A stretch of 37,928 nt of DNA from a virus (taxonomy: Duplodnaviria > Heunggongvirae > Uroviricota > Caudoviricetes), in IMG/VR virus record IMGVR_UViG_2703718774_000026. One strand, written 5' to 3'. The notes under the pieces were generated by a model, which was given only the letters and a program-made list of their open reading frames with translations, was not told the origin of the DNA and searched no databases. Shown here piece by piece: positions 16,029 through 37,228 of this stretch. The position numbers were made by a program, and so were the translations under genes. Each line of letters opens with the position of its first letter. Position 1 is the stretch's first letter.

Positions 16029-16120
16029 CGACTGACCCCGTCAGCGGGCGGCGTGCGCGGTGTTCCGGTTTGACTCCGTGACCGTTTACACCGCGCACCC
16101 ACCGCCCGATTTTTTCAGGA

Positions 16121-16824: not shown

Positions 16825-16826
16825 CA

Positions 16827-17943: not shown

Positions 17944-18085
17944 CCAACCCACATGGGGAAACCTCGGAATATGGGGCGACCGCCTTCTGGATGCACTGGA
18001 AACCTGTAACGCGGATAAACGGGCCATTGCTGAACTGGATAAGAGAATAGCCGAACTGACACACCAGACGGGAGTAACACAATGA
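17804..18085 (+). CDS. Rz1-like outer-membrane lipoprotein spanin (P2 LysC position), about 93 aa
   Basis: Lipobox LLTGC after a short signal sequence, Pro-rich body; embedded out of frame in the 3' part of the Rz-like gene. Confidence 0.6.
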   Translation: MNAPTLCLTLVLLTGCAGTQNAPRPAPSVRLIPQTLTMPVTPPPFPDQPTWGNLGIWGDRLLDALETCNADKRAIAELDKRIAELTHQTGVTQ

Positions 18086-19714: not shown

Positions 19715-19737
19715 GGATGAACAGGAGAGCAAAACAG

Positions 19738-20205
19738 ATGCTTAAGACAAACAGCCTCCGGAAGGGCATGATTCATGGGTGTCGCTGGTGTCAGGCCAAC
19801 CCGGAAAAATTCACCATTTTCGTGGAGAGCGGCAACATTGAAACGACCGGAGAAACGCCCTCGTTTGTTTACCGCTATCAGATGGTGATGTTTGTCATGG
19901 ATTACGCCGGGGAGCTGGACGACCTCACGCTGCCGCTACTGGCGTGGTTATCCGAAAATCAGCCGCAATTGTTGCTTAATCCGGAGCGTAATCAGGACAT
20001 CAAATTCTCCGCCGTTATCAATGACGATGACAGCGCCGATCTCCTGTTTACGCTCCCTCTGCGGGAACGCGTTCGCATCACGCGCAGCAGTCAGGGGGCA
20101 CCGCAGGCAGAACACCTGCAGGAGCCAAAACCCCGTCTGCCATCTTCCGAAGGCGACTGGTCGCATGTATTCCAGGATGTGACGTGGGGTGAAAGCGATG
20201 GATAA
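19738..20205 (+). CDS. R: Tail completion protein R (P2 gpR-like), about 155 aa
   Basis: MLKTNSLRKG...IFVESGNIET...LPLLAWLSENQP parallels P2 R as recalled from memory; internal ATG at 19738 preferred over 19717. Confidence 0.8.
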   Translation: MLKTNSLRKGMIHGCRWCQANPEKFTIFVESGNIETTGETPSFVYRYQMVMFVMDYAGELDDLTLPLLAWLSENQPQLLLNPERNQDIKFSAVINDDDSADLLFTLPLRERVRITRSSQGAPQAEHLQEPKPRLPSSEGDWSHVFQDVTWGESDG

Positions 20206-20833
20206 GGCATTCACCCGCGTGGATGAAACCTTTGAGGCTATCCGCGACAGCCTGAATCAGCAGGCCATCAATAACATCGCCAGAAAGCTGGCACAGGATT
20301 TACGCCGCGCCCAGCAGGCGCGTATCCGGTCACAGAAAGCGCCGGACGGGACCGCGTGGACACCACGCAGACGCCGCGTAACCCGGATACAGGAGCGCAT
20401 TCGCTTTATCTGGAATAACGAAGCACGCACGCTGAAAAACTGGCATCACGACACGGGGAAATACGGGCGAACCATTACCGGGTGGGATGAGGATAAAAAC
20501 AATATCCGCACGTTTTACCGGGATGACATCGACCGCTTTCTGGAAATACGCACCCGGCGCATCAACCAGGACAGCACAAAGCGCGTCCCCATGTTCGTAA
20601 AACTGCGCACCGCCCGCTACCTGAAAGCCCGTGCAGATGCTTCCGGTGTGACGGTGGGTTACAGCGGCGTGGCCGCACGTATTGCCCGCGTTCATCAGTT
20701 CGGTGAGCGCGATCAGGTTGCGCCGGGCATTTTCACCGATTACCCGGTACGTGAGCTGTTGGGCATCAGTCAGGCAGATGAACGCCTGATTTATAACACG
20801 GTGCTGGGCCGGATTGCGGAGGCTGTACGGTGA
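20198..20833 (+). CDS. S: Tail completion / virion morphogenesis protein S-like, 211 aa
   Basis: Position between R and V; start overlaps the R stop. Confidence 0.7.
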   Translation: MDKAFTRVDETFEAIRDSLNQQAINNIARKLAQDLRRAQQARIRSQKAPDGTAWTPRRRRVTRIQERIRFIWNNEARTLKNWHHDTGKYGRTITGWDEDKNNIRTFYRDDIDRFLEIRTRRINQDSTKRVPMFVKLRTARYLKARADASGVTVGYSGVAARIARVHQFGERDQVAPGIFTDYPVRELLGISQADERLIYNTVLGRIAEAVR

Positions 20834-21411
20834 GCGCAGAACTCATGCGACTGCTGAGCAACATCATCCGCACTGGGATCATCTCTGAAGTTGATGAGAA
20901 GTCCTGGTGCGTGCGCGTTCGCAGCGGCGAACTGGAAACAGGCTGGTTGCGCTGGAACACCACGCGCGCGGGAGCCTTCAATGTGTGGCTGCCGCCATCA
21001 CCCGGCGAACAGGTGGTAATTGCCTGCATTGGCGGCAACCCGGAAACCGCCATGATAATTGGCAGCCTGTGGAGTGATGCCAATCCGGCCCCCGGCAAAA
21101 GCCTGAAAGAAATCGTGGTCAGCGCGCCGGATGGCGCGGTGTTCCGCTACGACGCGGACGCAGGCGCACTGAGCGCCAGCGGCATGAAAACGGCCACCCT
21201 GCAGGCATCCGTCAGTGTGACACTGGACACGCCCGTCGTGGAATGCACAGACCTTCTGAGAACGGCGACGCTTGACGTCACAAAAGGGGGAAAGATGAGC
21301 GGCAATATCACGCACAGCGGCGGCAATTTCACCTCAAACGGCATCACAGTGCATACGCATAAACACGGTGGCGTTAAAGGTGGCAGCGATTCGACAGGAG
21401 GCCCGCAGTGA
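20830..21411 (+). CDS. V: Baseplate spike/assembly protein V (P2 gpV-like), 193 aa
   Basis: IRTGIISEVD...PSPGEQVVIACIGGNPETA...VTLDTPVVECTD...TKGGKMSGNITHSGG...GITVHTHKHGG aligns with P2 V as recalled from memory; GTG start. Confidence 0.85.
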   Translation: MSAELMRLLSNIIRTGIISEVDEKSWCVRVRSGELETGWLRWNTTRAGAFNVWLPPSPGEQVVIACIGGNPETAMIIGSLWSDANPAPGKSLKEIVVSAPDGAVFRYDADAGALSASGMKTATLQASVSVTLDTPVVECTDLLRTATLDVTKGGKMSGNITHSGGNFTSNGITVHTHKHGGVKGGSDSTGGPQ

Positions 21412-21758
21412 CAACCCGCTACACAGGAATGAACCCGGACGGAACGGGAAACCTGAACGATATGGAGCATCTGAAACAGTCAGTCAGGGACATCCTGACC
21501 ACCCCGCTGGCAAGCCGGGTTATGCGACGGGAATATGGCAGCCTTGTGCCCGATTTAATTGACGAACCCATGAATAACACCACTCGTCTGCAATGCATGA
21601 GTGCTGCCGTGATTGCGCTGACACGATGGGAACCCCGCATTGCCCTGGACGCCATCGACGTTGTCTGGAAGGCAGGAGGCCGCGCCGGGGTGACGCTGTC
21701 GGGCACTGTCATGCAGACCATGCAGAATGTTGAATTAACCATCACGCTGAGGGAGTAA
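21408..21758 (+). CDS. W: Baseplate protein W (P2 gpW-like), 116 aa
   Basis: TTRYTGMNPDG...RVMRREYGSL matches P2 W (MTARYLGMN...RVMRRDYGSL, recalled from memory); GTG start overlaps the V stop. Confidence 0.85.
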   Translation: MTTRYTGMNPDGTGNLNDMEHLKQSVRDILTTPLASRVMRREYGSLVPDLIDEPMNNTTRLQCMSAAVIALTRWEPRIALDAIDVVWKAGGRAGVTLSGTVMQTMQNVELTITLRE

Positions 21759-21761
21759 ATC

Positions 21762-22658
21762 ATGCCTGCCGTTGACCTTTCCCAGTTACCGGAACCCGCC
21801 ATCATCGCGGAGCCTGACTTTGAGGCAATTCTGGCTGACACAAAGGCCATGATGATTGCGTCCTATCCTGCCGAACAGCGTGAAGCCGTCTCCGCCGCGC
21901 TGGAGCTGGAATCGGAACCCCTGAACGTTATCGCCCAGACAACAGCGTTTCGTGAAATGCTGTTACGCCAGCGGGTCAATGAGGGGGCACGCGCCTGCAT
22001 GTTAAGCCACAGCGCCGGGACAGACCTGGACAACCTCGCGGGCAATATGAACACAAAGCGCCTGACCATCACTCCGGCAACGGATACCACCGACGCAGTG
22101 ATGGAAAGTGACACCTCGCTGAGACTGCGGGCGCAGCGGGCGTACGATGGCCTGAGTGTTGCTGGCCCGTCAGGTGCATACGAGTATTTTGCCCGCAGCG
22201 CCAGCGGTCTGGTGCGTGATGCGCGGGCTATCAGTCCGTCTCCGGCAAATGTGACGGTTTCCATCCTGTCCACTGAAGGCGACGGCACAGCAACGGAGGC
22301 GTTGCTTAATACCGTTCGCGCCGTTCTGAATGCAGAGGATACCCGCCCGGTGGCCGACCGCCTGACGGTACAGAGCGCCAGAATCGTGACATGGCGGCTG
22401 AATGCAAAACTGTACTTTTACCCCGGCCCGGAATCCGAACCTATTCTGGCGGCGGCTGAATCGTCGTTCAGGAAGTGGCTGGCTGAGCAGGGGCTTATCG
22501 GTCAGGACGTGGCGTTGTCCGCCATTGCTGCCGCACTGCATGTGCACGGTGTGCAACGCGTGGAGATAATCGAACCCACACAGAATATGGCCATCAGCGA
22601 CATACAGGCGGCGCGCTGTGAGTCGTTCACCATCAGCGAAGGTGGGCGCAATGAGTAA
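21762..22658 (+). CDS. J: Baseplate assembly protein J (P2 gpJ-like), 298 aa
   Basis: Size and order as in P2. Confidence 0.85.
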   Translation: MPAVDLSQLPEPAIIAEPDFEAILADTKAMMIASYPAEQREAVSAALELESEPLNVIAQTTAFREMLLRQRVNEGARACMLSHSAGTDLDNLAGNMNTKRLTITPATDTTDAVMESDTSLRLRAQRAYDGLSVAGPSGAYEYFARSASGLVRDARAISPSPANVTVSILSTEGDGTATEALLNTVRAVLNAEDTRPVADRLTVQSARIVTWRLNAKLYFYPGPESEPILAAAESSFRKWLAEQGLIGQDVALSAIAAALHVHGVQRVEIIEPTQNMAISDIQAARCESFTISEGGRNE

Positions 22659-23181
22659 TTCACTGTTACCACCATCAGCCAGCAGTTTCATGCGTTGTGC
22701 CGAAGCTGTCGGAACGCGCATTACAGACATCCCGGTAGACCTCAACACGCTGTGGTCGCCGGACACCTGCCCGGTGCACCTGCTGCCTTATCTCGCCTGG
22801 GCATTTTCCGTTGACCGCTGGGATCGCAACTGGCCGGAAGAGACAAAACGACAGGTGATTCGTGATGCATGGCTGATACACCGACACAAAGGGACCATCA
22901 GCGCACTGCGCAGGGCCATTGAGCCGCTGGGATACCTCATTCGCGTGTCTGAGTGGTGGGAGTTCGGCGGAGAACCGGGAACATTTACCGTTGAAGTCGG
23001 CACACTGGACAGTGGCGTGACGGAGGAAATGTATCTGGAAATGGAGCGGTTGATTGCTGATGCCCGTCCGGTCAGCCGCCACATGACAGGGCTGAATATC
23101 ATTCAGGAAATTCCGGGGGATATTTTTGCAGCGGCGGCAACTCATGACGGTGAAGTTATTACCATTTATCCGGACGATTAA
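22651..23181 (+). CDS. I: Baseplate/tail protein I (P2 gpI-like), 176 aa
   Basis: Internal ATG at 22651 overlaps the J stop; size matches P2 I. Confidence 0.8.
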
Positions 23182-23183
23182 GC

Positions 23184-25316
23184 ATGAGTACCACAACACG
23201 AAAATTTAAAACCGTTATCACCGATACAGGTGCCAAAAAATTAGCTCAGGCAGCCGCGCCAGATGGTAAGCCTGTCCGCCTGACTCATATGGCCGTGGGC
23301 GACGGTGGCGGCGCGTTGCCCACACCAGACAGTAAGCAGACCCGTCTGGTGCATGAGGTGTGGCGACACACTGTTAATCGCGTCATCCTGGACGCAACAC
23401 ATCAGAACCGCATTATTGCGGAGCTGGTTATTCCTCCAGAAACGGGCGGATTCTGGATCCGGGAAATTGGTGTGTTTGATGAGCACGGCGATTTAATCGC
23501 GGTGGGCAATACTGCCGAAAGTTACAAGCCAGCCGTTGCCGAAGGGTCCGGACGTGCACAAACATTTCGCACCATTCTGACCGTATCCAGCACTGCCACT
23601 GTGGCGCTTACCGTGGATAACACCATGGTGATGGCCACAGTGGATTACGTGGATAACGAACTGAAAGAGCATGAACAGTCACGATGTCACCCGGATGCCT
23701 CGCTGACCGCAAAAGGCTTTGTTCAACTCAGTAGCGCCACTAACAGCGATTCTGAAACGCTGGCTGCAACGCCGAAAGCGGTTAAGGTCGCGTATGATCT
23801 TGCTAACGGAAAATATACAGCGCAGGATGCCACAACAGCGCGAAAAGGCCTTGTCCAGCTTAGTAGTGCAACCAACAGTACATCTGAAACGCTGGCGGCA
23901 ACATCAAATGCAGTAAAAGCTGCCTATGACAATGCTGAAAAACGTCTGCAGAAAGCTAAGAATGGTGAGGATATCTCTGATAAAGACACCTTTACGAAAA
24001 ATATCGGTGCCTGCCGTGCATATAGTGCAGAGCTGAATATTGGTGGAGATAGTGAAGCATGGACAACTGCGCAGTTGATTTTTTGGCTAGAGAGTCAGGG
24101 GGCATTTAACCATCCTTACTGGATGTGCAAAGGCTCATGGGCTTATGCAAATAATAAGGTCATTACAGATACAGGTTGCGGAAGTATTTGTCTTGCAGGT
24201 GCTGTTGTGGAAGTTATTGGCACCCGCGGCGCAATGACCATACGCATTACCACACCGAGTACATCCAGCGGTGAAGGCATCCCTAATGCTCAATTTACTT
24301 ATATTAATCATGGTGATGCTTATGCTCCTGGCTGGCGAAGGGACTATAACTCCAGGAATAAGCCAACAGCATCAGAGATCGGGGCGTTACCGTCAGATGG
24401 GACAGCAGTATCGTCAGTTAATCTGGCTTCAAAAGGTCGGCTGACCGCCCTGACAGATAATATGCAGGGGGCCACAGGTCTGGAGTTATACGAGGCGTAT
24501 AACAACGGATATCCAACAACGTATGGAAATATCATTCACCTGAAAGGGATGACAGCCGTTGGCGAAGGCGAATTACTCATCGGCTGGAGTGGTATAAGCG
24601 GTGCTCATGCTCCGGCATTTATTCGTTCACGACGGGATACGCCCGACGCAAACTGGTCGCCGTGGGCGCAGCTTTACACCTCGGCTCATCCTCCTGAAGA
24701 GTTTTATCCAGTCGGTGCACCGATTCCGTGGCCATCAGATACCGTTCCGTCTGGTTATGCCCTGATGCAGGGGCAGACTTTTGACAAATCTGCATACCCG
24801 AAACTTGCAGTCGCTTATCCGTCAGGCGTTATTCCTGATATGCGTGGCTGGACGATTAAGGGCAAGCCCGGCAGTGGTCGTGCCGTATTGTCTCAGGAAC
24901 AGGACGGCATTAAATCGCACACCCACAGCGCCAGCGCATCCAGTACGGATTTGGGGACGAAAACCACATCGTCGTTTGATTACGGTACTAAAACGACCAG
25001 TTCATTTGATTACGGCACAAAAACTACGAATAGCGCTGGAAATCATTCACACAATATACCTGTTGGTCACACTGGCGCGGGGAATGGTGTATCAGCCGGT
25101 TATAACGCTGCGTTAGGTACTGGTACCACGTCGAGCGCAGGCGAGCATGCTCACAATGTATATATCGGTGCCCATAACCACACTATCGGCATTGGTGCTC
25201 ATGCCCATTCTGTCATTATTGGTCCCCACGGACACACCATCACCGTTAACGCTACGGGTAACGAAGAAAACACCGTAAAAAACATCGCATTTAACTATAT
25301 TGTGAGGCTTGCATAA
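23184..25316 (+). CDS. H: Tail fibre protein H, 710 aa, with P2-like N-terminus and divergent C-terminal tip
   Basis: N-terminal 230 aa closely parallel P2 H, including a tandem repeat ([33 protein letters not shown] and [33 protein letters not shown]); the C-terminus has a collar-like block, three [10 protein letters not shown] repeats and a His-rich HxH region. Confidence 0.9.
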
Positions 25317-25894
25317 TGACATTCAGAATGAGTGAACACTCACGGACCATAAAAATTTATAATCTACTGACCGGAACCAATGAGTTTATTGGTGAAGGTG
25401 ATGCATACATTCCACCTCATACAGGTCTGCCTGCAAACAGTACCGATATTGCCCCGCCAGATATTCCGGCTGGCTTCGTGGCCGTTTTCAACAGTGATGA
25501 GGCATCGTGGCATCTCGTTGAAGACCATCGGGGTAAAACGGTTTATGACGTGGCATCAGGGGACTCGTTATTTATTTCTGAACTCGGTCCATTACCGGAA
25601 AATGTTACCTGGTTGTCGCCGTATGGAGAGTATCAGAAGTGGAACGGCACATCCTGGGTGAAAGATGCAGAAGCAGAAAAACTGTTTCGGATAAGGGAGG
25701 CGGAAGAAACAAAAAACAGCCTGATGCAGGTAGCCAGCGAGCATATTGCGCCACTTCAGGATGCCGTAGATTTGGATATTGCAACGGAGGAAGAGGCATC
25801 GTTACTGGCTGCATGGAAGACATACCGGGTATTGTTGAATCGTGTTAATACAGCGGTAGCAGCGGATGTTGAGTGGCCAGTCGCCCCACAATAA
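25316..25894 (+). CDS. G: Tail fibre assembly chaperone (P2 gpG / Tfa-like), 192 aa
   Basis: Start overlaps the H stop; size and position fit a Tfa-family protein. Confidence 0.8.
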
Positions 25895-25900
25895 AGAGAA

Positions 25901-25930
25901 AAAGCCATCGATTGAAATATAGATGGCTTT
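25901..25930. terminator. Hairpin between convergent G and the acetyltransferase gene
   Basis: AAAGCCATC (25901-25909) pairs with GATGGCTTT (25922-25930) around a 12-nt A/T-rich loop. Confidence 0.45.
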
Positions 25931-25937
25931 ATGTACT

Positions 25938-26510
25938 CTATTTATACAATACAACACCGCTCTTTTTAGTTATATATGTGCAGTTCGATGGTATATCTTT
26001 ATTTATAAAAGACATTGCACCTATTTTTACATTATCCCCAATTTTACGTGATAATCCAATGATGCAACAATTAGCTCCGATATCAACGTTACTACCAATT
26101 TTTACTCTTGAACCAGGCATGTCACCATCTATCTGTCCAATGGTAGTATTCTGTCGTAACACCAGATTTTCACCAGCATCAACAGCAAAATGAACAACAA
26201 TTCCAGCATGATGGGGAATTGTTAACCCTTTTCCAATATTTGCGCCCAATCCAATTTCACAACCAAATTTGTTAATTATTTTACTGTTTAACTTTTTGGC
26301 TGCTTTCTTATGTAATTTATTACCATTAATATACATTTCGTTAGCCAACCGCCACCAGAAAAGGAAATTCCGGTTACGCTGTTTTTTCTCTCTTAAAAGC
26401 CTCCAGATATCCATACGTTTCCGCCGAATTACTTCATATTTCCAGAAGTTTTTTAAATTAGTAGAGTCCCCAAATAAAACAAAGTGAATTGCCATTAAGT
26501 AAGACAGCAC
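25938..26510 (-). CDS. Hexapeptide-repeat (left-handed beta-helix) acetyltransferase, about 190 aa
   Basis: Imperfect hexad repeats GCEIGLGANIGKGLTIPHHAGIVV...GQIDGDMPGSRVKIGSNVDIGANCCIIGLSRKIGDNVKIGA; GTG start after AAGGAG preferred over the ATG at 26543; very AT-rich; sits at the P2 Z/fun cargo position. Confidence 0.75.
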   Translation of the reverse strand: MLSYLMAIHFVLFGDSTNLKNFWKYEVIRRKRMDIWRLLREKKQRNRNFLFWWRLANEMYINGNKLHKKAAKKLNSKIINKFGCEIGLGANIGKGLTIPHHAGIVVHFAVDAGENLVLRQNTTIGQIDGDMPGSRVKIGSNVDIGANCCIIGLSRKIGDNVKIGAMSFINKDIPSNCTYITKKSGVVLYK

Positions 26511-26666
26511 GATAATCTCCTTAATTATTATTTCAGACCACACATATTATAAGGTTAAGAGATTATAAAATCCTGTTGTTTGTTATTCAAAAACAATTTT
26601 CTGAGAAGGACATACAACAGCAAGTCGCCAGTCACCTTCATCAGGAAATTGGCGACATACGTTAAA

Positions 26667-27161
26667 TCAGAGCAGCCCCTTAACTGAGCTGGTCGCGCTA
26701 TTAAGGGATGATGTCACCTTATCTTTGAAGCCGGACAACATATCGCTGAACGATGAGGATTGCAGGCGCTCCCGCAAATCCTCATCACAGCGTTCAAGAG
26801 TCAGTGAAAATTCTATCTTTTTCGACTTACCGTAGCGATCAAACTCGGAGCGGGTCGTATTCGTTTCGGTCAGGACATACATGCCGTAAATCTGCCCGAC
26901 GCCATCAATCAGAGGCCAGGGCCGTCCTGTATACGCCTGCGTGGTCAGCAGAGACAGCGACACTTCGCCACCTGTAATTTCAGGATAAAGCACACCAGAA
27001 AGAACGATGCGATCATCACCTGCACCGATATACTGCCAGCTTGCTGAACGGTTAACGCGTTCATTTTTCACATGCCGCCAGCTTTTATTTTGCTGTAACT
27101 GCTGATGCGGCAGCGTGCGCAGCTCAAAAACAAACATGCCATAGATCATCATCATGGCCAT
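26667..27161 (-). CDS. U: Tail protein U (P2 gpU-like), 164 aa
   Basis: MIYGMFVFEL.TLPHQ...VLSGVLYPEITGG...GRPWPLIDG.G.IYGMYV matches P2 U blocks as recalled from memory. Confidence 0.85.
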   Translation of the reverse strand: MAMMMIYGMFVFELRTLPHQQLQQNKSWRHVKNERVNRSASWQYIGAGDDRIVLSGVLYPEITGGEVSLSLLTTQAYTGRPWPLIDGVGQIYGMYVLTETNTTRSEFDRYGKSKKIEFSLTLERCDEDLRERLQSSSFSDMLSGFKDKVTSSLNSATSSVKGLL

Positions 27162-27167
27162 GACTCC

Positions 27168-30011
27168 TCAATCTTTATCGTAAAAACTGCCACGCCCGGC
27201 ACGGGCGCGCCGTTCCATTTCTGCCCTGACCATTTCACCGACCAGTTTCGCCAGTTCGCGGGGATTCTGCGTAACAACGTTATGCAGATGAACATGAATT
27301 TCACCGCCAAATCTGGAGACAGCAGGCTCCCGATTACGGGAAGCTGCAGGAACTGATGCCACTGGCGATCGTATGGCCTCCGCCACCGGGCGGGAGCTGG
27401 CCGCAACAACAGGGACCAGCGCCGGAGGCAGCGGAGCCGGGACTACGGGTGTGATATTAATTGCGGGGGCAGGCTTACTGACCTGCGCAATCTTCCGCTC
27501 CTGCCACTCCCCACGAACAGCAAGTGCGCGGGGCAGGTTCTTAAAGACAATATCGCCAGGGCCAATGCGTTTTTTCGTCTCATCAACCAGCTTACCTGTG
27601 TTATCAGCAATTTTGCTGAGTCTGCGTAGCGTCCCGGTATTGCTGTCTGTGAGCGGTTTGTTGTCTTTGGGTTTATCACCTCCGGTGCCATTGCCATTTT
27701 CCACAGGCTTCGGCGGATTGATTTTCGCCAGGTCCCCCTGAAGTAAGGCAACCTTATCCTGAAGAATGGCCGCACGCTGTGCGTCTTCGATTTTCTTGCG
27801 CGCCCTTTCCGCTTCATCCGGAAGGACGCCAAGTTTTTCAAGTATCCACGCCAGCGTATCCAGTAGCATTTTTGCAGGTGTCAGAACAAGTTGTAACGCA
27901 CCGCCAAGAACGTTACCGAATATCTCGCCAGCACTGGTACATTTATCCAACGTTTCCTTGCTGGACTCCATCGGTGACAGCAGCGATTTAAACCAGTTAA
28001 ACACCTGGCTGATCCCGCTTCCGATTGCGTCAAAAACAGGGCCAAACCGTTCAAAGGTTTCACGCAACGGGTTCAGCCTTTCCATAATCCCGCTGAACAC
28101 CCCGGCAAAAAATGCCCTGATGGGATCCCAGTATTTCCAGATAAGGACGGCAGCTCCGGCAAGCGCAGCCACGATAAGACCAACCGGACTGAACAGCGCC
28201 CCGATAGCGCCTCCCAGTAAAGAAACGGAACCCGTCACCATTCCCCATAGTGCTGGCAGGACCCTGACAGCATTCATTGATCCGGTCAGGAGAGAAAAAC
28301 CAAGACGCAGTTTTGCCAGCGGACCAGCAAGCACACCAATAGCCAGCGACAACGAGCCAACCGTTGCAGTCATTGCCAGCAACGCACCGCCTGCTATCAG
28401 TAGCTGGCGCGTCAGTGCCGGATGGGCCTGCGCCAGCGCCGTCACCCTTGATACCACCCGCGTGAGCCACTGCGTGACAGAACGCAGCGGACCGTCAATC
28501 AGATCTGCAATGCGGATGCGCAACCCTTCCCATGCACTGCCGAGTGATTTCAGATCGCCGTCAAGGTTGTTGGCCATAACCTTTGCTGTGCGTTCAGCCT
28601 CACCGCGCGCGCCTTCAAGTTCTTTTCTCAGTTTGGGTAAGGAACCGTCACCCACTGCATCAACGAGCGCCATAAACGATGTGAAAGCCTCTTCTCCGGC
28701 AATGTCCTTAAAGAACGATACCCGGTCAACTTCCCCGTATTTGCGGGTGGCTTTATAAAGGTCGGCCAGCACATCCTCCATCGGGCGCATTTTACCCCCG
28801 GCATCCGAGACGGACACGCCCAGCTCTTTCAGAGCTTCTGCCGCCGCCTTTGGCGGTGATGCCAGACGAGCCAGGCTGGCACGCATTGCCGTCCCGGCAT
28901 CACTCCCTCTGATGCCCATATTCGCCAGCACACCAGCCATCGCTGCGGCCTGCTCCAGCGATATTCCCAGCTTACCCGCCACCGGACCTGCATATTTCAT
29001 GGTTTCGCCCAGTGCGCGAAGGTCAGTGTTGGTACGGGTAAACGCTGCGGTGAGTGTGTCACCGACCCGGTCCATCTGGTCAGCAGAAAGGCCGAACTGC
29101 GTCAGGATATTTGAGCCAATATCTGCCGTCTCGCCGAGATCCATACCGCCAGCCGTTGCCATGCTCAGCACTCCGGGAAGCGCAGCCTGAATGGCCTGCG
29201 GTGTGAAGCCTGCCATTGCAAGAAATGCCTGCCCACTGGCGGCATCGCCTGCGGTGAACTGCGTTTCAGAGCCAAGTTTTAACGCCTGCTCACGCAGCGC
29301 CTTAAACTGCGGGCTGTTCTGGTCGATTCGCGTCAGCGCCTGAACGCGGGACATCTCTTTGCCGAACCCGATCGCGGGCTGCAAAAAACGCCCGGCAGCA
29401 TAGCCGCCCGCCGCTGCCGCACCAATTGCCAGCGCACCACCTGTTTTCAGTTTTCCCGCGGTTTCCTGCGCGCGCGAATACCACTTACGCGCCCGCGTTA
29501 CACGCGCAAGCGCCTGCCGTTCGCGTTCAAGCTGGTTGTTGTACTGTTCGGTGCGTCTGATGGCCTGCTGGATGGTGTTATCGCTGCCTGTCAGGGAAAT
29601 GCCGTGGCGTTTCAGCTCTCCGCCAAGCTCCCGCATTTTCTGAATTTCCCGTGTGCGCGATTCATTCAGGCGTTCAAGCCGGGTGCTTAACTGCTGCATC
29701 AGCTTTTGTTGTTTTTCGCTGAGCACTGTACCCGTGCGTTGTAACTGATTAAGGGCGTTAAGCTGGCGTCGTGCTTTCACGATACCCGCATCCGCTTTAC
29801 TGACAGCGTCGCGGGCGCGCTCAAATGAACGAGCCTGACGCTCGAGATTTTTAATCGCCCCCTGCGTTCGCTGGATGGAGTCACCAAACTGCCCCATCAG
29901 GCGGCGGGCGTTTTCGGCAGGCCGGGTCAGCCTGTCAACGGCGCTGAAAGCGACCCGGATATCAAGAGTCTTCATTGTCTGCATTCCCGCTGCGAAGTGC
30001 CGCCCGCTCAC
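27168..30011 (-). CDS. T: Tail tape measure protein (P2 gpT-like), 947 aa
   Basis: Long coiled-coil N-terminal region and Gly/Ala-rich transmembrane-like segments; located between E/E' and U. Confidence 0.9.
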   Translation of the reverse strand: MSGRHFAAGMQTMKTLDIRVAFSAVDRLTRPAENARRLMGQFGDSIQRTQGAIKNLERQARSFERARDAVSKADAGIVKARRQLNALNQLQRTGTVLSEKQQKLMQQLSTRLERLNESRTREIQKMRELGGELKRHGISLTGSDNTIQQAIRRTEQYNNQLERERQALARVTRARKWYSRAQETAGKLKTGGALAIGAAAAGGYAAGRFLQPAIGFGKEMSRVQALTRIDQNSPQFKALREQALKLGSETQFTAGDAASGQAFLAMAGFTPQAIQAALPGVLSMATAGGMDLGETADIGSNILTQFGLSADQMDRVGDTLTAAFTRTNTDLRALGETMKYAGPVAGKLGISLEQAAAMAGVLANMGIRGSDAGTAMRASLARLASPPKAAAEALKELGVSVSDAGGKMRPMEDVLADLYKATRKYGEVDRVSFFKDIAGEEAFTSFMALVDAVGDGSLPKLRKELEGARGEAERTAKVMANNLDGDLKSLGSAWEGLRIRIADLIDGPLRSVTQWLTRVVSRVTALAQAHPALTRQLLIAGGALLAMTATVGSLSLAIGVLAGPLAKLRLGFSLLTGSMNAVRVLPALWGMVTGSVSLLGGAIGALFSPVGLIVAALAGAAVLIWKYWDPIRAFFAGVFSGIMERLNPLRETFERFGPVFDAIGSGISQVFNWFKSLLSPMESSKETLDKCTSAGEIFGNVLGGALQLVLTPAKMLLDTLAWILEKLGVLPDEAERARKKIEDAQRAAILQDKVALLQGDLAKINPPKPVENGNGTGGDKPKDNKPLTDSNTGTLRRLSKIADNTGKLVDETKKRIGPGDIVFKNLPRALAVRGEWQERKIAQVSKPAPAINITPVVPAPLPPALVPVVAASSRPVAEAIRSPVASVPAASRNREPAVSRFGGEIHVHLHNVVTQNPRELAKLVGEMVRAEMERRARAGRGSFYDKD

Positions 30012-30198
30012 GCCAGCTAACCACTTCGCCGGGCGTCATCATGAAGATTTCGGCGGGCGACCAGTTAAAAATAACGGCAATATCTGCCACAAAGTCTTCT
30101 ATGTGCTCAAAGCACACAACCGTGATCAGGCTTCCGTCGCCTGTTCGTTCTTCCCGCCAGAGTCCGCACCGCTCAAAAAATTTACGGCAACCACACAT
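29962..30198 (-). CDS. E' reading frame: -1 frameshift extension of the tail chaperone (E+E')
   Basis: Slippery heptamer TTTTTTG on the minus strand (30174-30180, seen as CAAAAAA on the plus strand) in the last 20 codons of E; the -1 frame stays open and overlaps the T start, the P2 E/E' architecture. Confidence 0.7.
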   Translation of the reverse strand: MCGCRKFFERCGLWREERTGDGSLITVVCFEHIEDFVADIAVIFNWSPAEIFMMTPGEVVSWRERAALRSGNADNEDS

Positions 30199-30491
30199 AA
30201 CTGAATAAAGTCACGGGATGCCATTTTTTTGATCGTCACTTCATCCAGTCGCGGTGATGTCACGCGTGACAGCAGCGTAAACATGGATTCCGCTTTCAGA
30301 TTCAGCACATCAGACAGCGACAAATCTCGCAGAGATCCAGCCTGCTCAATAGCCCCGGTGATCTCCACATACGTGATTTTTTCGCCGCCTCGCTCAATTG
30401 GTTGGGTAAGTTTTACACCACGCTCACTGGTTTCTTTCACAGTGTCAGCAACTACCGTGTTTTCGGTATCGATGTTTTTCGTCTCTTTCAT
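30126..30491 (-). CDS. E: Tail assembly chaperone E (P2 gpE-like), 121 aa
   Basis: Position between FII and T; contains the slippery site. Confidence 0.8.
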   Translation of the reverse strand: MKETKNIDTENTVVADTVKETSERGVKLTQPIERGGEKITYVEITGAIEQAGSLRDLSLSDVLNLKAESMFTLLSRVTSPRLDEVTIKKMASRDFIQLCVVAVNFLSGADSGGKNEQATEA

Positions 30492-30545
30492 CAGGAAACT
30501 CCTTTCAGTCAGAGGCGACGCACTGCGCCGCCTGCATATTACTTA

Positions 30546-31058
30546 TCAGCCAAGCCCGAGCGCGGAACGGATGCGATCGGGCACAATGTCCTTGCCGTCC
30601 TTCCGGTAAATGAAGTTCAGCAGGTCAATCTCCCACAACGGGCGATCGTTAACACTCAGCTTGTAGTAGGTGTTTTTAATGGCGTAAGTGTGTGATGTGG
30701 CTTCGCCCTGTTTGGCTTCCCCCATATCAATTTCCGTCACACGTCCGCGCATTTCGACTTCATACAGGTCGCTTTCTGCATCGGTGTAATATTCACCCGC
30801 AAAACGCAGCAGCGTGCCGTCAATCGTGCCGCCATACTTAAGGAACAGCTCACGAACTGCGCCCCCCATGACAAAGCTCGCATCAAGCGCGGAGTCGTCC
30901 AGACCGAGATCAATACTTACCGCACCCATCATGCCACCACCCCGGTAGCTGTCGGTTTTGCGCGTCAGCTTAGGCAGAGTGACGGACGTCACCTTACCCA
31001 CTTCGTTTTCACCATCCACAAACAGCGTAAAAAAGCGAAGATGTTTTGGTACAGCCAT
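30546..31058 (-). CDS. FII: Major tail tube protein (P2 gpFII-like), 170 aa
   Basis: Size and position immediately after the sheath gene. Confidence 0.9.
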   Translation of the reverse strand: MAVPKHLRFFTLFVDGENEVGKVTSVTLPKLTRKTDSYRGGGMMGAVSIDLGLDDSALDASFVMGGAVRELFLKYGGTIDGTLLRFAGEYYTDAESDLYEVEMRGRVTEIDMGEAKQGEATSHTYAIKNTYYKLSVNDRPLWEIDLLNFIYRKDGKDIVPDRIRSALGLG

Positions 31059-32242
31059 CAGGCACCTCCCAGCACCGCAAATGCGGGTTCAAAGTATTCA
31101 TCAGTAAACGTCTGGTAAAGCTCCATGTCTTCCAGTGGCGGAACGGGCGTATATTTGTAGCGAATACGCACACGCCCCTGACGTAAATCCGTGGTGCTGT
31201 TATCCACCACGTCATACCAGCACTCCGCGCCAATCAGTTTCCCGGCAGTAACCAGCGAATCCAGTTTTGCCCTGATGGCACTGATAACATCCTTCACGTT
31301 CGCAGGCGTCAGTGGACTGTCGATGGTTTCAAACTGCGCTTCCGCAATTGAATCAGCCAGCACCTGTGCGGTTCGGGTATACACCTCAAAGATGTAGGCG
31401 TTCGTTTCCGGTGTGCGGTTGCCCCAGAAGCGGAACCCGTTGCGACGAATAATGGTCGTGATTTCTTTGTTGTTGAGGCTGTTGGCATCACTGTCTTCGG
31501 CCTGCAACGACCAGAAAACATGCCTGGACATCCCCAGCACATTTTTAACAGGAACGTTGGACAGCGATTTGTGCCAGCCCTGCTCATGGTCAATGTACGC
31601 ACGAAGGCCGCACGCATAGGCAGGCGCGGGGAACGTTTCGTTTTTGCCACTTTTCGGGTTGTAGGCGATGAAGTCCGGCCATAAGAGCATCACCTCACGT
31701 TCGTTGAATTTCTGGCGGTAGGTAATTGCCTCAGCCATCGTGTTACAGTCATGACATGAGGCATACACAAACGCGCGCAGTTTACCCGCAATCACGCACA
31801 GGGATTTTGTCACCGCCTCCGTGTCCAGCTCCGGCGCGGCCAGAATACGCGGACGGTATCCGATGCTTTCATCCTGCTCTGCAACAAGCAGCGCATACAT
31901 CCCCGTATAGCTGCCGTCAGATTCAGAACCACCGATAACCAGTTGATCCTGCGTCTTACCGCCTTCTTCTTTGTGTTCAGCCACGCGAACGACGATCACT
32001 TTTGTGCTCACCTGGTCTGCAATAGCCTTAAGCGCACGATAAAGCGTCCCCGTAGTCCCGCATTTTCCCAGCACGTCATTGACGCGGGTCAGCAGTGTGG
32101 GCTTGTTCAGCGGGAACAGCTCCGCGTCCGCATCATCCGCCGTTGCCACGATACCGATAACACTGGAATCAACATCATTAATCGCTGTTACCAGGTCGGT
32201 ACTTTCCGTAACACGGGCACCATGAAAACGAGTTTCACTCAT
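31058..32242 (-). CDS. FI: Tail sheath protein (P2 gpFI-like), 394 aa
   Basis: Blocks FPLNKP, LRAF, WPDF, IDHEQGWHKSLSNV, IRRNGFRFWGNRT, YTRTAQV, YKYTPVPPLE match P2 FI as recalled from memory. Confidence 0.9.
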   Translation of the reverse strand: MSETRFHGARVTESTDLVTAINDVDSSVIGIVATADDADAELFPLNKPTLLTRVNDVLGKCGTTGTLYRALKAIADQVSTKVIVVRVAEHKEEGGKTQDQLVIGGSESDGSYTGMYALLVAEQDESIGYRPRILAAPELDTEAVTKSLCVIAGKLRAFVYASCHDCNTMAEAITYRQKFNEREVMLLWPDFIAYNPKSGKNETFPAPAYACGLRAYIDHEQGWHKSLSNVPVKNVLGMSRHVFWSLQAEDSDANSLNNKEITTIIRRNGFRFWGNRTPETNAYIFEVYTRTAQVLADSIAEAQFETIDSPLTPANVKDVISAIRAKLDSLVTAGKLIGAECWYDVVDNSTTDLRQGRVRIRYKYTPVPPLEDMELYQTFTDEYFEPAFAVLGGA

Positions 32243-32399
32243 AGCTTCAGCCCCTTGTATCCGTTAAATGATTCGGCAACAATCATCACCCACCACGCGC
32301 GTAATCTCACCCCTGCGCCGTTCTCCCGCCACGGCGACAACAAAAAGCAGTAACCCCCTATGCACGCACATGCGACCATGCCGCACAGGGAGGGAACAG

Positions 32400-33500
32400 A
32401 TGACCGATACCACCATGCAATTGCTCAGTCAGAGCACAGACCCCGTGAAAATGCCGGATTTTGATATTCTCGCGGAGGGGGAAACACTGTCCGGCGTGGC
32501 AGAGCGCCTGATGAGCCTGTCACTGACCGACAACCGGGGATTTGAAGCGGACCTGCTCACCATCACGCTGGATGATGCGGATGGTCAGTTGCAGCTACCG
32601 CCACGGGGCGCGCGCCTGACGGTTCTCATTGGCTGGAAAGGAGAACCGCTGACAGAAAAAGGCACTTACATTGTTGATGAAATCGCTCACGAAGGACCGC
32701 CGGACAGGCTGACTGTTTCAGCCAGAAGCGCAGATTTTCGGGATGAATTTAACGTTAAACGTGAGGTGTCCTGGCATGATGTGACCGTTGAGCGCGTGGT
32801 ATCCGCCATCGCTCATCGGTACGGTCTGAAACCACAAATCAGCGAAATGCTGATGGATATTGAAATCGACCACGCCGACCAGACCGAAGAAAGCGACATG
32901 TCCTTCCTTACGCGCATGGCGGAAATGCTGGGCGCAATCACTACGGTAAAAAGCAGTAATCTGTTATTCATCATGCCAGGCGGTGGCGTGAACGCACAGG
33001 GCCAGCCGTTGCCATCGTTCGCCATCACGCGCAGCAGTGGCGATCGCCATCAGTTCCGCATTGCTGACCGCGAAGCGTATACGGGGGTACGTGCTTACTG
33101 GCTTGATCTTAATTACGGGAAAAAGAAAAAAGTCAGCGTGAAACGCCGCAAACCGAAAAAGGAGAAAAGCAGCAGCCGTGAAGGTGACTATATGGAAGGT
33201 GCGGAAGGCAACGTGTTTGTGTTACGCAAGACTTATCAGAACGAGCAGGCAGCAAGACGTGCAGCGGCGGCAAAGTGGCAGCAGCTACAACGCGGAGCCG
33301 CATCATTCTCCATCACGCTGGCGCGTGGACGCGCAGAACTCTATCCCGAAATGCATGGCACGGTGACAGGCTTCAAAAGTGACATCGATAATCAGGACTG
33401 GATTATTGCAAAAGCCGAGCACACCATTGATAACAGCGGCTTTACCACACAGCTTGAGCTTGAAGCAAAAATCCCGGAATGGATAGCAGAAACAGAATGA
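32400..33500 (+). CDS. D: Tail protein D (P2 gpD-like), 366 aa
   Basis: LTDNRGFEAD, ARSADFR, KREVSWHD, DQTEESDMSFLTRMAE, ITRSSGDRHQFRIADREAYTGV, FSITLARGRAELY, GFKSDIDNQDWIIAKAEHTIDNSGFTTQLELE match P2 D as recalled from memory; ATG at 32400 after GGGAGGG. Confidence 0.9.
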   Translation: MTDTTMQLLSQSTDPVKMPDFDILAEGETLSGVAERLMSLSLTDNRGFEADLLTITLDDADGQLQLPPRGARLTVLIGWKGEPLTEKGTYIVDEIAHEGPPDRLTVSARSADFRDEFNVKREVSWHDVTVERVVSAIAHRYGLKPQISEMLMDIEIDHADQTEESDMSFLTRMAEMLGAITTVKSSNLLFIMPGGGVNAQGQPLPSFAITRSSGDRHQFRIADREAYTGVRAYWLDLNYGKKKKVSVKRRKPKKEKSSSREGDYMEGAEGNVFVLRKTYQNEQAARRAAAAKWQQLQRGAASFSITLARGRAELYPEMHGTVTGFKSDIDNQDWIIAKAEHTIDNSGFTTQLELEAKIPEWIAETE

Positions 33501-33899
33501 GCAAATTAGATGTATTGACTCAAACCAGAACTGACACACTCACAGCACAGTGCCAGACCCAATCTGGCAGCCCGCTTTGTGCCTAGAGCAGGTGTTGCTT
33601 ATGTAACAGTTAATCCACGGATAGTGGTCATGAATGCTGGTTGAAGTTGTATTGCCATGAGTGGTCAATTAGGGACTCACTTATTATCGCGTGCTCACCA
33701 TTGATGGGTAAGATCATGCATTTCGGCTACTGTACTTCGCGAATCCTCCGCACACAGGCAACACCTGATTTAAGAACAGAGGGAGATGATGACGCAAGGA
33801 AGATTTATTATCGTGCATGTGGCAGATGATCTTTTAGCTGCCGGAGTGATAAATTACACCTATTTTCGATAAGTGTTTTTGTTATAGAACATTAATTTC

Positions 33900-35039
33900 G
33901 TGGGAAACAATAAAGTGAAATTAGGAAGAAATGATAAGTGCTGGTGTAATTCAGGACTTAAGTATAAAAAGTGCCATCTTGGTCGAGATCGTGAAACTCC
34001 GGTATCCAAAGCCGAGGCACTGAAATTTTCAAAGTCTCTCTCGCAGAGAAAGGCATGTTATGCGCCAGCATCCATGCACGAAGATTGTGATAAACGCATC
34101 GTTCAGGCGCATACGATATCTAAGAGCAGTAGCCTTAAGGCGATCGCCGACTCCAGCAATCACGTCATGGGGGTGATAATGAACTTAGCAAGCCTGATGA
34201 GAAACAACGGAAAATGGCTTCCCGAGAAGATCGGTATCAATCAGGCATCCACTTTTACAGGATTTTGTGCAGTTCATGACAGAATCTTATTTTCATGCCT
34301 AGAGAACGAAAAATTTACAGGCACGGACGAGCAGTGCTTTGCCTTAATGTTTCGTTCATTGTCTAAAGAAATTTATGCCAAAGAAGGGGGAGTGCTATCT
34401 TCTGATTTTGCTAAAAATGCCGATAAAGGAAAGCTACAAGTTGAACAGTATTATATTCAGAAATTAATCGACCAGCACCAAAGTGGCTTAAATGCAGCAA
34501 TAATTGAATTAAATAATCTTAAAACTAGCCTCGACCGCATCCTACTTAGCAGGCAATTTTCAGAAATTGAAAGTGTTATCTTCACTTTTGCAGAGCCTTT
34601 ACCAATTGTAGTTTCGTCAATTCTTTCACCGGAGAGGGATTTCGATGGGACCAAAATTCAGGATTTGAGCGATCTTACAGTGTCGGCGGAACAAGTATGT
34701 TTCAATGCTTTTTCCTGCGGAGGTAAGGGATATGTAGTGTTCAGTTGGCTGAGAACTTCAACAATTATCAGACGTTTTATACGGACACTAATTAAGATCC
34801 CAGCTAACAGGATGTTCAATACCCTTCTGTATTTTTTCTTCACAAAGGCCGAAAATACATATTCATCCCCTGAGTGGTGGGACAGGCTCAGTGATAAACA
34901 GCGAGAGAATATCGGCAACATGATTATGTCAGGGGTTGAATTTTTTGGCAGACCTACATCACAGGTTGATCATTCCGTTGATTATAACGCCGCTGCACTT
35001 GAAGAGATAACATGCAGCAACAACGAAATTTGCAGCTGA
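33900..35039 (+). CDS. SEC-C-motif protein of unknown function, 379 aa
   Basis: N-terminal CWCNSGLKYKKCH is a SecA C-terminal-type zinc motif; rest unrecognised; GTG start; AT-rich; inserted between D and ogr. Confidence 0.6.
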   Translation: MGNNKVKLGRNDKCWCNSGLKYKKCHLGRDRETPVSKAEALKFSKSLSQRKACYAPASMHEDCDKRIVQAHTISKSSSLKAIADSSNHVMGVIMNLASLMRNNGKWLPEKIGINQASTFTGFCAVHDRILFSCLENEKFTGTDEQCFALMFRSLSKEIYAKEGGVLSSDFAKNADKGKLQVEQYYIQKLIDQHQSGLNAAIIELNNLKTSLDRILLSRQFSEIESVIFTFAEPLPIVVSSILSPERDFDGTKIQDLSDLTVSAEQVCFNAFSCGGKGYVVFSWLRTSTIIRRFIRTLIKIPANRMFNTLLYFFFTKAENTYSSPEWWDRLSDKQRENIGNMIMSGVEFFGRPTSQVDHSVDYNAAALEEITCSNNEICS

Positions 35040-35325
35040 ATGTTTACATGCTGTTAGAAAAAGCGGGCTGAACAATCATTTCGGGATTGTAACAGATAAG
35101 ATGGCACTGCCCGCTTGCTTCCCGATATGCTCAGCCAATAAACTTATGTAAGCAACCGATTTCCATTTATGCGGAGGTTATCAAAGTTGTTGGAGTTGCG
35201 AACTTCCGCTCTTCGCACAAAGCGTACCGCTAGGTTTGATTGTATTCTGGCTGCGCAAACTGTCAGTTGGAGTCTGAGCTATTACAACTTAGAATAGCGG
35301 CAGCACCACGTTAAGGGAGGTCGCT

Positions 35326-35586
35326 ATGTTCCGTTGTCCGCTTTGTGGCGCATCTGCCCGAATCCGCACCAGTCGTCCGGAAAACGATTCAAACACTGTG
35401 CGGCAAAAGTATTACCAGTGTAACAACCTGGAATGCGGCGTATGCTTCTCAACACTGGAAGCTTTCCATAAATTCACATCAAAACACGCCTCCGGCGTTC
35501 ACTCTTCGGAAGGTATCCCGTGGCATGAGCTGCCAGCTTCACACAGGGGAAACAATCAGATGAGTTTGCCTTTACCTCAGAATTAA
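35326..35586 (+). CDS. ogr: Ogr/Delta-family zinc-finger late-gene activator, 86 aa
   Basis: MFRCPLCGASARIRTSR...YYQCNNLECG parallels P2 Ogr (MFHCPLCQHAAHARTSR...YHQCQNVNC, recalled from memory); RBS AAGGGAGG. Confidence 0.85.
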   Translation: MFRCPLCGASARIRTSRPENDSNTVRQKYYQCNNLECGVCFSTLEAFHKFTSKHASGVHSSEGIPWHELPASHRGNNQMSLPLPQN

Positions 35587-35776: not shown

Positions 35777-35917
35777 ATGTCGCAAAAATCGCTTACAGCC
35801 ATCACGTTCTGCGTGACGGTAATCCTCATCATCTGGATGCTACGCGGTTCGCTGTGTGAAATACGGATGAGCTTCTGGGGAGCGGAGTTTGCGGCGTTCT
35901 TACAGTGTAAGCAGTAA
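35777..35917 (+). CDS. Hok/Gef-family type I toxin-like peptide, 46 aa
   Basis: Hand-translated MSQKSLTAITFCVTVILIIWMLRGSLCEIRMSFWGAEFAAFLQCKQ: one transmembrane helix then R.SLCEIR and EFAAF, resembling Hok (RKSLCEIRY...EVAAF, recalled from memory); RBS AAAGGAG. Confidence 0.55.
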   Translation: MSQKSLTAITFCVTVILIIWMLRGSLCEIRMSFWGAEFAAFLQCKQ

Positions 35918-36855: not shown

Positions 36856-36882
36856 TACGAAAAAACCACCCGAAGGTGGTTT
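36856..36882 (-). terminator. Rho-independent terminator of the tRNA operon
   Basis: On the minus strand ACCACC-TTCG-GGTGGT followed by TTTTT, about 45 nt past the tRNA-Leu 3' end. Confidence 0.65.
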
Positions 36883-36925: not shown

Positions 36926-37012
36926 TGGTACCCGGAGCGGGACTTGAACCCGCACAGCGCGAACGCCGAGGGATTTTAAATCCCTTGTGTCTACCGATTC
37001 CACCATCCGGGC
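36926..37012 (-). tRNA. leuZ: tRNA-Leu (anticodon UAA)
   Basis: Reverse complement reads GCCCGGATGGTGGAATCGGTAGACACAAGGGATTTAAAATCCC...GGGTTCAAGTCCCGCTCCGGGTACCA, with D-loop, anticodon loop, long variable arm and T-loop GGTTCAAGTCC. Confidence 0.9.
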
Positions 37013-37024
37013 TCGGGAAGAAAG

Positions 37025-37098
37025 TGGAGGCGCGTTCCGGAGTCGAACCGGACTAGACGGATTTGCAATCCGCTACATAACCGCTTTGTTAACGCGCC
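37025..37098 (-). tRNA. cysT: tRNA-Cys (anticodon GCA)
   Basis: Reverse complement reads GGCGCGTTAACAAAGCGGTTATGTAGCGGATTGCAAATCCGTCTAGTCCGGTTCGACTCCGGAACGCGCCTCCA. Confidence 0.9.
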
Positions 37099-37152
37099 AA
37101 ATTCTTCAGGCCTTTCAGCCAGACATCCGCTTGACGCCGATGTCTTTTAAAC

Positions 37153-37228
<76 letters not shown>

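Follow-up and report, generated by a model that had tools for sequence, protein, structure and literature searches.

Gene layout of the tail-core block

The window, that is, the whole stretch of DNA analysed (37,928 nucleotides), is 100% identical to the chromosome of E. coli O26:H11 11368 (NC_013361), except for a run of 13 N. Open reading frames and the RefSeq annotation of the identical 11368 segment place H (23184-25316) and G/tfa (25316-25894) on the plus strand. Between G and U lies a variable slot, which here carries a cargo gene for a serine O-acetyltransferase on the minus strand (25938-26510; RefSeq annotation, with a weak Pfam Hexapep match). The G+C content across this slot (25895-26666) is 34%, and homology among the E. 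coli prophages ends at 26661.

Beyond the slot, the tail-core genes occupy the minus strand. The first gene of the operon encodes the tail sheath protein gpFI (31058-32242; Pfam Phage_sheath_1, Gp18_domIII_N and Phage_sheath_1C; 45% identity to P2 FI), followed by the tail tube protein gpFII (30546-31058; Phage_tube, E=7.5e-47) and gpE (30126-30491; open reading frames and the 11368 annotation). E' (29962-30117) is in the -1 frame relative to E, and its reading frame matches Phage_P2_GpE. The tape measure protein gpT (27168-29975; PhageMin_Tail, E=3.6e-58, and RefSeq annotation) and the tail protein gpU (26667-27155; Phage_P2_GpU, E=2.8e-38, annotated as a coding sequence in RefSeq; 46% identity to P2 U) complete the operon. 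A slippery heptamer, T_TTT_TTG, is located near the end of E at 30180-30174, reading AAT TTT TTG at 30182-30174 in the E frame. E' is predicted, from the relative frames of E and E', to be produced by a -1 frameshift at this heptamer, as annotated for E+E' of P2. All tail reading frames are intact.

On the other side of a 157-bp divergent spacer (32243-32399), read directly from the sequence and aligned across 62 unique relatives, gpD is encoded on the plus strand (32400-33500; Phage_GPD). This late control D or baseplate hub protein is 98.6% identical to gpD of phage P88 and 48% identical to gpD of P2; its gene stands alone and has its own ribosome-binding site. An ogr/delta-type zinc-finger late activator follows on the same strand (35326-35586; Ogr_Delta, E=5.1e-14; 36% identity to P2 Ogr). 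The Pfam matches for FI, FII, E', T, U and D exceed the curated cut-offs, identifying a P2-like (Peduoviridae) tail-core module, and by tblastn FI, FII, E, T, U and D are 32-49% identical to their P2 counterparts.

The P2 record reads H-G-(fun/Z, on the opposite strand)-FI-FII-E-T-U-D-ogr, with FI to D on the strand of H and G. The F operon of P2, transcribed from promoter pF, contains the same seven gene products in the same internal order from FI to U, including the E/E' slippery heptamer; P2 also encodes an Ogr-type activator and has a dyad about 85-90 nt upstream of FI. Unlike in the window, the whole P2 operon runs with H and G, and D follows U on the same strand, overlapping it. In the window, the minus strand carries FI to U (26667-32242) and the plus strand carries D, as the original prediction had read from the sequence alone; it was also right that each tail protein is P2-like and that the neighbour of U is the acetyltransferase rather than D.

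A search for an inverted repeat pair spanning both junctions of the block found none, in agreement with the same observation. The prediction had also pointed to a 9-mer shared by both ends of the block. The two minus-strand copies of AAGGGGCTG are indeed there, one in the last codons of U (26673-26681) and one in the Shine-Dalgarno sequence of FI (32248-32256), but a third is present at 6059 on the plus strand, making three copies in the window against 0.18 expected. The copy at FI is not kept in relatives at 60-78% identity. As a cause of the inversion the 9-mer was rejected: being direct rather than inverted repeats, its two junction copies are unable to bring about an inversion.

Distribution of the gene order

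Phage P88 (Xuanwuvirus P88, NC_026014) has the same arrangement, with H, G, the slot and then U-T-E'-E-FII-FI on the minus strand, followed by D on the plus strand. Its alignment with the window is uninterrupted from 26661 to 33510 at 97.1% identity, and the FI/D spacer differs at just two bases. Seven collinear blocks, 87-97% identical, account for about 25.4 kb of the roughly 37-kb prophage, and the core genes are 94-100% identical at the protein level. The ICTV guideline for a genus is about 70% identity over the whole genome. Summed over the blocks, overall identity to P88 is about 66-68%, just under this value because of three cargo replacements. The G/U slot of P88 holds an invertible fibre segment and a DNA invertase, while that of the window holds a different fibre tip and assembly gene and the serine acetyltransferase; the window also differs at two further cargo slots, with a DUF6645 gene separating the lysis genes from R, and a SEC-C/YecA-family gene between D and ogr. 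A PADLOC search of six accessory genes (the three cargo genes and three others) gave short SEC-C-motif matches only and no defence system.

One suggestion for the departure from P2 had been a misassembly, with the 5.7-kb block wrongly oriented in the contig. The contig does contain one run of N, as had been pointed out, and this run (19290-19302) is the only one; it stands in for 258 nt of the DUF6645 gene, about 7 kb from the nearer block junction, and identity to 11368 holds on both sides of it. In dozens of O26 genomes finished independently of one another, the 9-kb region is matched collinearly at 100% identity. Both block junctions are contiguous in hundreds of complete genomes, and the FI/D junction, searched with a 558-nt probe, is contiguous in about a quarter of the complete E. 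coli genomes (1,358 of 5,426). Against this background, an assembly error is hardly conceivable.

The order also extends to phages known to be functional. P88 is mitomycin-inducible and plaque-forming, with a burst size of about 65 (PMC5285337). PhiSM, whose record aligns with this 6.85-kb block without a break, is released spontaneously, is plaque-forming and lysogenises E. coli K-12 (PMC6456863). These two phages speak against the suggestion of a defective prophage.

How far the arrangement reaches was surveyed in the best 80 of 433 genome loci, ranked by gpD profile, a selection in which exceptions of the other orientation among closer relatives could be missed. Among these 80, the flipped order is present without exception where gpD identity is 60% or more (62 prophages, from about 30 genera of Enterobacterales); where it is 53% or less, every locus has the P2 order, Pseudomonas and Burkholderia phages included. 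The flipped order is seen in the genera Xuanwuvirus, Reginaelenavirus and Reipivirus, and the canonical order in Peduovirus, Kapieceevirus, Felsduovirus, Citexvirus and Tigrvirus. On a gpD tree built by simple neighbour joining from distances, which has no support values, the 63 flipped tips form a monophyletic group against 25 canonical ones. The flipped order is the standard, old and working order of a large P2-like branch, the P88 group, and the sequence of the window is already known. The original prediction had itself named this outcome, an order normal among close relatives, as one that would refute it.

What was proposed of an inversion stands in part: the FI to U block is flipped with respect to P2 and the rearrangement is a genuine evolutionary one, but it did not take place in this prophage. 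A recent in-place inversion, leaving D without a late promoter and the prophage defective, would account for the difference from P2 and for U and D being no longer adjacent or translationally coupled, unlike in P2-type phages. Such an event is very improbable given the same order in P88 and PhiSM, in the 1,358 E. coli genomes and in the 62 surveyed relatives, where gpD identity goes down to 60%; moreover, every tail reading frame has been kept, and D has its own ribosome-binding site with a conserved dyad and -10 signature upstream.

A third possibility is that the block is a programmed invertible segment, switched by a Gin/Hin/Cin-type invertase in the manner of tail-fibre segments, of which the window captures one of two states. 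A DNA invertase gene does lie directly beside U in P88 and several relatives, and directly beside FI in the canonical Felsduovirus SEN8. However, the block has no flanking inverted repeats, and tblastn with the P88 invertase finds no match in the window. Only one orientation occurs in the 62 diverse loci (from the best 80 of 433) and in the 1,358 E. coli genomes, and orientation follows the gpD phylogeny perfectly, which fits one old event and not switching. We regard a switching block as highly unlikely.

The spacer between FI and D

P2-type late promoters dependent on Ogr/Delta contain a partial dyad, TGT-N12-ACA, with its centre about 55 nt 5' of the transcription start. An exact search of the window for this motif gives no site in the FI/D spacer or in the divergent spacer between P and O. 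The reading that there is no Ogr site was dropped when a search allowing one mismatch, together with the alignment of relatives, revealed a variant with TCT in place of the consensus TGT at a conserved position. This dyad, TCT-N12-ACA (32322-32339, centre 32330.5), is the proposed shared Ogr-binding site. T(G/C)T-N12-ACA occurs at one aligned position in 58 of the 62 unique relatives, with a freely varying spacer.

The information profile of 37 non-redundant spacers has no peaks other than those at the dyad and, counted outwards from its centre on either side, at bases 45, 48 and 49. At these positions A, A and T are conserved both to the left (FI side) and to the right (D side) of the dyad centre, so that both -10 signatures end exactly 49 nt from it. 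In the window they correspond to the predicted -10 hexamers GATGAT for FI (32282-32287, minus strand) and GACCAT for D (32374-32379, plus strand), both of them weak, with predicted starts near 32275 and 32386, respectively. The same three peaks are present 3' of the pF dyad in 13 P2-type loci, P2 included. The predicted D start is just 5' of the ribosome-binding site GGGAGGG, giving a predicted leader of only about 14 nt. No promoter in the FI/D spacer emerged from a generic scan for sigma-70 promoters and terminators, but such a scan is uninformative, because activator-dependent promoters without a -35 element are expected to be missed.

A precedent for one site serving two promoters is found in P2 itself, where a single annotated activator site serves the divergent pP and pO promoters, with starts mapped 55.5 nt to either side. 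In both cases one dyad is located midway between divergent genes, and the predicted geometry of the FI/D spacer, in which it is the predicted -10 hexamers that end 49 nt to either side, agrees with that of P2. The P/O spacer of the window has a second copy of the dyad sequence found in FI/D (TCT-N12-ACAACAAAA, 13180-13197), the counterpart of the shared pP/pO site of P2. The P2 site differs from that in the FI/D spacer in its place in the genome and in the genes it serves, and it has been mapped experimentally, whereas the site proposed here is deduced from conservation. A search for a third, pV-like dyad 5' of R, S and V, in both the window and P88, gave none.

From conservation and geometry, the FI/D spacer is most likely a bidirectional Ogr-dependent promoter, in which a single T(G/C)T-N12-ACA site in the middle would serve FI to U in one direction (minus strand) and D in the other (plus strand). 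Ogr would bind at the dyad, and transcription would start at or near the predicted points. D thus probably still has a late promoter, and the original concern that it had been separated from one is probably unfounded. The arrangement could also be normal for the lineage with D driven by a constitutive or other promoter, or with the dyad acting for FI only, and the weak GACCAT hexamer and very short predicted leader on the D side would fit this. It is nonetheless unlikely: in the 37 non-redundant spacers the conserved A/A/T on the D side mirrors the distance on the FI side exactly while other positions are free, and the shared pP/pO site of P2 is a direct precedent.

If the shared site does operate, the genes for sheath and tube on its one side and the hub gene D on its other side would depend on one activator site, and expression of D would be uncoupled from the sheath and tube operon throughout this branch of the P2-like phages. 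The spacer would then be a natural example of an inversion making a promoter bidirectional. In any case, its compactness makes it a candidate for work on how two divergent promoters may be driven from a single Ogr site.

Origin of the flipped order

The monophyly of the flipped type on the gpD tree points to one old inversion. Taken together, the window very probably represents a P88-like (Xuanwuvirus-type, Peduoviridae) O26:H11 prophage with the order normal for its lineage, derived from one old flip, and with a likely bidirectional late promoter between FI and D.

Felsduovirus phages of the SEN8 / Fels-2 type share the neighbourhood of the window lineage, in which H and G are followed by an inverted fibre segment and a DNA invertase, and these by the tail-core block, D and ogr, but SEN8 has the block in canonical orientation, so that the invertase is followed by FI, and U by D. 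Comparison of SEN8 with P88 puts one breakpoint of the flip immediately past the invertase gene and the other where U meets D. Since the invertase is found beside U in P88 and its relatives and beside FI in SEN8, its gene marks one of these breakpoints. An origin of the flip through the invertase was considered for this reason; nothing supports it.

The original rearrangement was very probably a single flip, in an ancestor of a large enterobacterial branch of P2-like phages, of a cassette consisting of the late promoter pF followed by FI-FII-E/E'-T-U. On one side the flipped segment would have been bordered by the slot that follows G (cargo or invertase), on the other by the beginning of D. 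Turning the cassette around would have moved the dyad-symmetric activator site of pF beside D. We lean towards the view that the flip in this way gave D a new, separately driven late transcription unit, by two-way reuse of the Ogr site of pF. The flipped order has been passed on since then and is functional, as the plaque-forming P88 and PhiSM show. Our literature searches found no paper discussing an inversion of FI to U, nor one on two-way reuse of the pF Ogr site after such a flip.

P2 is not a template for all P2-like prophages, and a flip of this block with respect to P2 is no reason to call a prophage damaged or misassembled. The flip is instead a clean synapomorphy of a large sub-branch of the Peduoviridae.

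Gene order of the tail region and its distribution

The tail region was mapped from the open reading frame list of the window and from RefSeq, which annotates the identical segment in E. coli O26:H11 str. 11368. On the plus strand, H (23184-25316) is followed by a G/fibre assembly gene (25316-25894); the minus strand then carries a serine O-acetyltransferase gene (25938-26510), U (26667-27155), T (27168-29975), E' (29962-30117), E (30126-30491), FII (30546-31058) and FI (31058-32242), after which D (32400-33500), a SEC-C/YecA-family gene (33900-35039) and ogr (35326-35586) are again on the plus strand. Pfam matches confirmed all tail proteins and Ogr, and the slippery heptamer of P2 type is kept in E/E' (AAT TTT TTG, 30182-30174), with E' in the -1 frame. 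In the P2 record, FI to D all lie on the H/G strand, whereas here FI to U are on the opposite one; the inversion of the block was thus correctly recognized in the original prediction, as was the 157-bp spacer between FI and D (32243-32399).

A recent inversion, perhaps in a defective prophage, and a misassembly had both been suggested as explanations; the distribution of the flipped order refutes them. Dozens of complete O26 genomes, strain 11368 among them, match the 9 kb from 25000 to 34000 at 100% identity, and a direct comparison with 11368 gives 100% identity over the entire window with the sole exception of its single N-run (19290-19302, 13 N). A 558-nt junction probe (200 nt from the start of each of FI and D, plus the spacer between them) matches contiguously in 1,358 of 5,426 complete E. 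coli genomes. The acetyltransferase-U junction is contiguous in 495 E. coli genomes; in the remaining genomes similarity begins at 26661, just beyond the U stop codon, which makes the left "junction" a mere edge of a variable cargo slot. P88 fills this slot, between G and U, with an invertible fibre segment and a DNA invertase.

P88 (Xuanwuvirus, Peduoviridae) is the nearest named phage. It aligns to the window in one unbroken stretch of 97.1% identity (26661-33510), spanning U to FI, the spacer and D, and is annotated with the same layout: U, T, E', E, FII and FI minus, D plus. P88 is mitomycin-inducible and plaque-forming, with a burst size of about 65 and a normal contractile tail in electron microscopy (PMC5285337). 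PhiSM, a related phage of Citrobacter, is likewise working and temperate (PMC6456863) and matches the same block as one piece. The flipped order is therefore compatible with a fully working virion.

An alignment of gpD was used to search one-genome-per-species contigs, and orientation was scored by tblastn with the window proteins in the best 80 of 433 genome matches. Among these, FI to U are divergent from D in every classifiable locus (62 of 62) at a gpD identity of 60% or more, and three more loci, cut by a contig end or with no U match, agree; every locus with gpD at most 53% identical has the P2 order. The flipped loci are from Escherichia, Salmonella, Citrobacter, Klebsiella, Enterobacter, Kosakonia, Pantoea, Erwinia, Brenneria, Pectobacterium, Symbiopectobacterium, Serratia, Edwardsiella, Providencia, Morganella, Xenorhabdus, Photorhabdus, Yersinia, Hafnia and others. 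The named phage genera Xuanwuvirus, Reginaelenavirus and Reipivirus have the flip, while Peduovirus, Kapieceevirus, Felsduovirus, Citexvirus (Pseudomonas) and Tigrvirus (Burkholderia) have the canonical order. A neighbour-joining gpD tree with the Pseudomonas phage as root groups the 63 flipped tips in a single clade, apart from the 25 canonical tips. Tree and survey together indicate that the P2 order is ancestral and that a single, ancient flip has been retained since; with all close relatives surveyed flipped (the 62 loci and P88), the order is normal for its lineage. One surveyed locus (NZ_JBQPOM010000071.1, labelled Vagococcus sp. WN89Y) is a 226-kb contig with prophage tail proteins 96-100% identical to those of the window; this nominally Gram-positive assembly is probably contaminated or mislabelled.

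A programmed invertible segment would also produce a reversed block, but we reject it: one orientation alone was observed per lineage, the window has no invertase gene and, as noted in the original prediction, no inverted repeats are present at the two junctions of the block. With the sequence public in finished genomes and in an ICTV-classified phage, the feature is known and ordinary. Our literature search found nothing on the flip or on a bidirectional promoter between FI and D, and the lack of published comment leaves both a small residual interest.

The spacer between FI and D

The inversion had been proposed to sever D from the F operon promoter. This is probably not the case, judging from a conserved candidate dyad and -10 signatures on both sides of it. 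The divergent late promoters pP and pO of P2 share one annotated activator-binding site (3057-3087), and their mapped starts (3016 and 3127) each lie 55.5 nt from a TGT-N12-CCA dyad, on opposite sides of it. The FI-D spacer of the window contains TCT-N12-ACA at 32322-32339, and T[G/C]T-N12-ACA is found at the same aligned position in 58 of 62 unique spacers; the inner 12 nt are free to vary, while most of the 62 retain ACAACAAAAA as the right flank.

A gap-free information profile of 37 non-redundant spacers (<85% identity), anchored at the dyad centre, rises from near zero only at the dyad, at a few inner positions and, to the left and right alike, at the 45th, 48th and 49th base (A/A/T), which match hexamer positions 2, 5 and 6 of a -10 element. 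As a control, 13 P2-type pF regions, including that of P2, gave the same peaks downstream of the dyad. The predicted -10 hexamers are GATGAT for FI (32287-32282, minus) and GACCAT for D (32374-32379, plus), with transcription predicted to start near 32275 and near 32386, the latter immediately before the GGGAGGG ribosome-binding site of D. In the window, the spacer between genes P and O has an identical dyad, TCT-N12-ACAACAAAA, at 13180-13198; by eye, a -10-like hexamer can be seen at the equivalent distance towards P and, towards O, one base farther out.

The FI-D spacer most likely acts as an Ogr-dependent promoter in both directions, derived from pF and moved with the flip; we infer Ogr binding and both starts from these patterns. 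The pF region would have travelled with the flipped cassette, leaving its dyad beside D, and this single dyad would drive FI to U in one direction (minus) and D in the other (plus). The only live rival is transcription of D from a promoter other than the shared Ogr site.

No third Ogr-type dyad, equivalent to pV, turned up ahead of R, S or V in either the window or P88, so the O to G genes (13116-25894) may be transcribed as a single, very long late operon, or may rely on a divergent site not recognized here.

Breakpoints and the end of the FI operon

In Felsduovirus SEN8 the order is H, G, inverted fibre segment, invertase, FI to U, D, ogr; P88 differs in having U to FI reversed. This places the flipped cassette from just past the invertase/cargo slot up to the U/D boundary, the promoter region ahead of FI included. 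U and D overlap in P2-type phages. D of the flipped branch has a ribosome-binding site of its own, and its product is poorly conserved from residue 1 to 12-18, which fits a rebuilt 5' end of D.

The 9-mer AAGGGGCTG lies on the minus strand at 26673-26681 and 32248-32256 and on the plus strand at 6059 (three copies versus 0.18 expected), and is indeed present at both the end of U and the FI ribosome-binding site. As a driver of inversion it was discarded, the minus-strand copies being direct repeats, unable to mediate one. The FI copy is the Shine-Dalgarno region (AAGGGG), and the FI leader differs in relatives 60-78% identical; we treat the recurrence as coincidence. A terminator-like hairpin (CAGCTC...GGCTG, then a T-rich run; 26673-26691, minus), containing the U copy of the 9-mer, covers the last codons and stop of U and could terminate the FI operon transcript.

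Cargo and prophage end

In P88 (NC_026014), ogr directly follows D (34476-34733) and is 99% identical to that of the window, with no CDS over it in the RefSeq record. In the window a 1.8-kb insertion (33511-35285, 42% G+C) lies in between, encoding the 379-residue SEC-C-motif/YecA-family protein. PADLOC gave only short SEC-C-motif matches for this gene, which may be cargo. The N-run stands in for 258 nt of a DUF6645-domain gene (18082-19714), intact in strain 11368 (1,878 nt); compared with P88, the entire gene is inserted, its site lying between the lysis cassette and R.

Where P88 has its invertible fibre segment and invertase, 23931-26660 holds the distal tail fibre, the fibre assembly gene and the serine O-acetyltransferase, 94-96% identical to the unrelated larger phages JL22 and vB_EcoM-Ro157c2YLVW; over the fibre end and assembly gene (25179-25881), identity to lambda stf/tfa is about 89%. 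Such a pattern suggests that a host-range module, possibly including a surface-modifying enzyme, was exchanged horizontally.

After replication gene A, the prophage encodes a segregation ATPase of the plasmid ParM type together with a partition protein (7899-9174), as does P88, which is named in phage-plasmid survey papers. A one-mismatch copy of the P88 attachment core, GCCACCCGAAGGTG (PMC5285337), at 36865-36878 marks the right prophage end, about 50 nt from the tRNA-Leu 3' end of a Leu-Cys-Gly tRNA cluster (36926-37228) beside pgsA. Just within this end is a hok/gef toxin gene (35777-35917).
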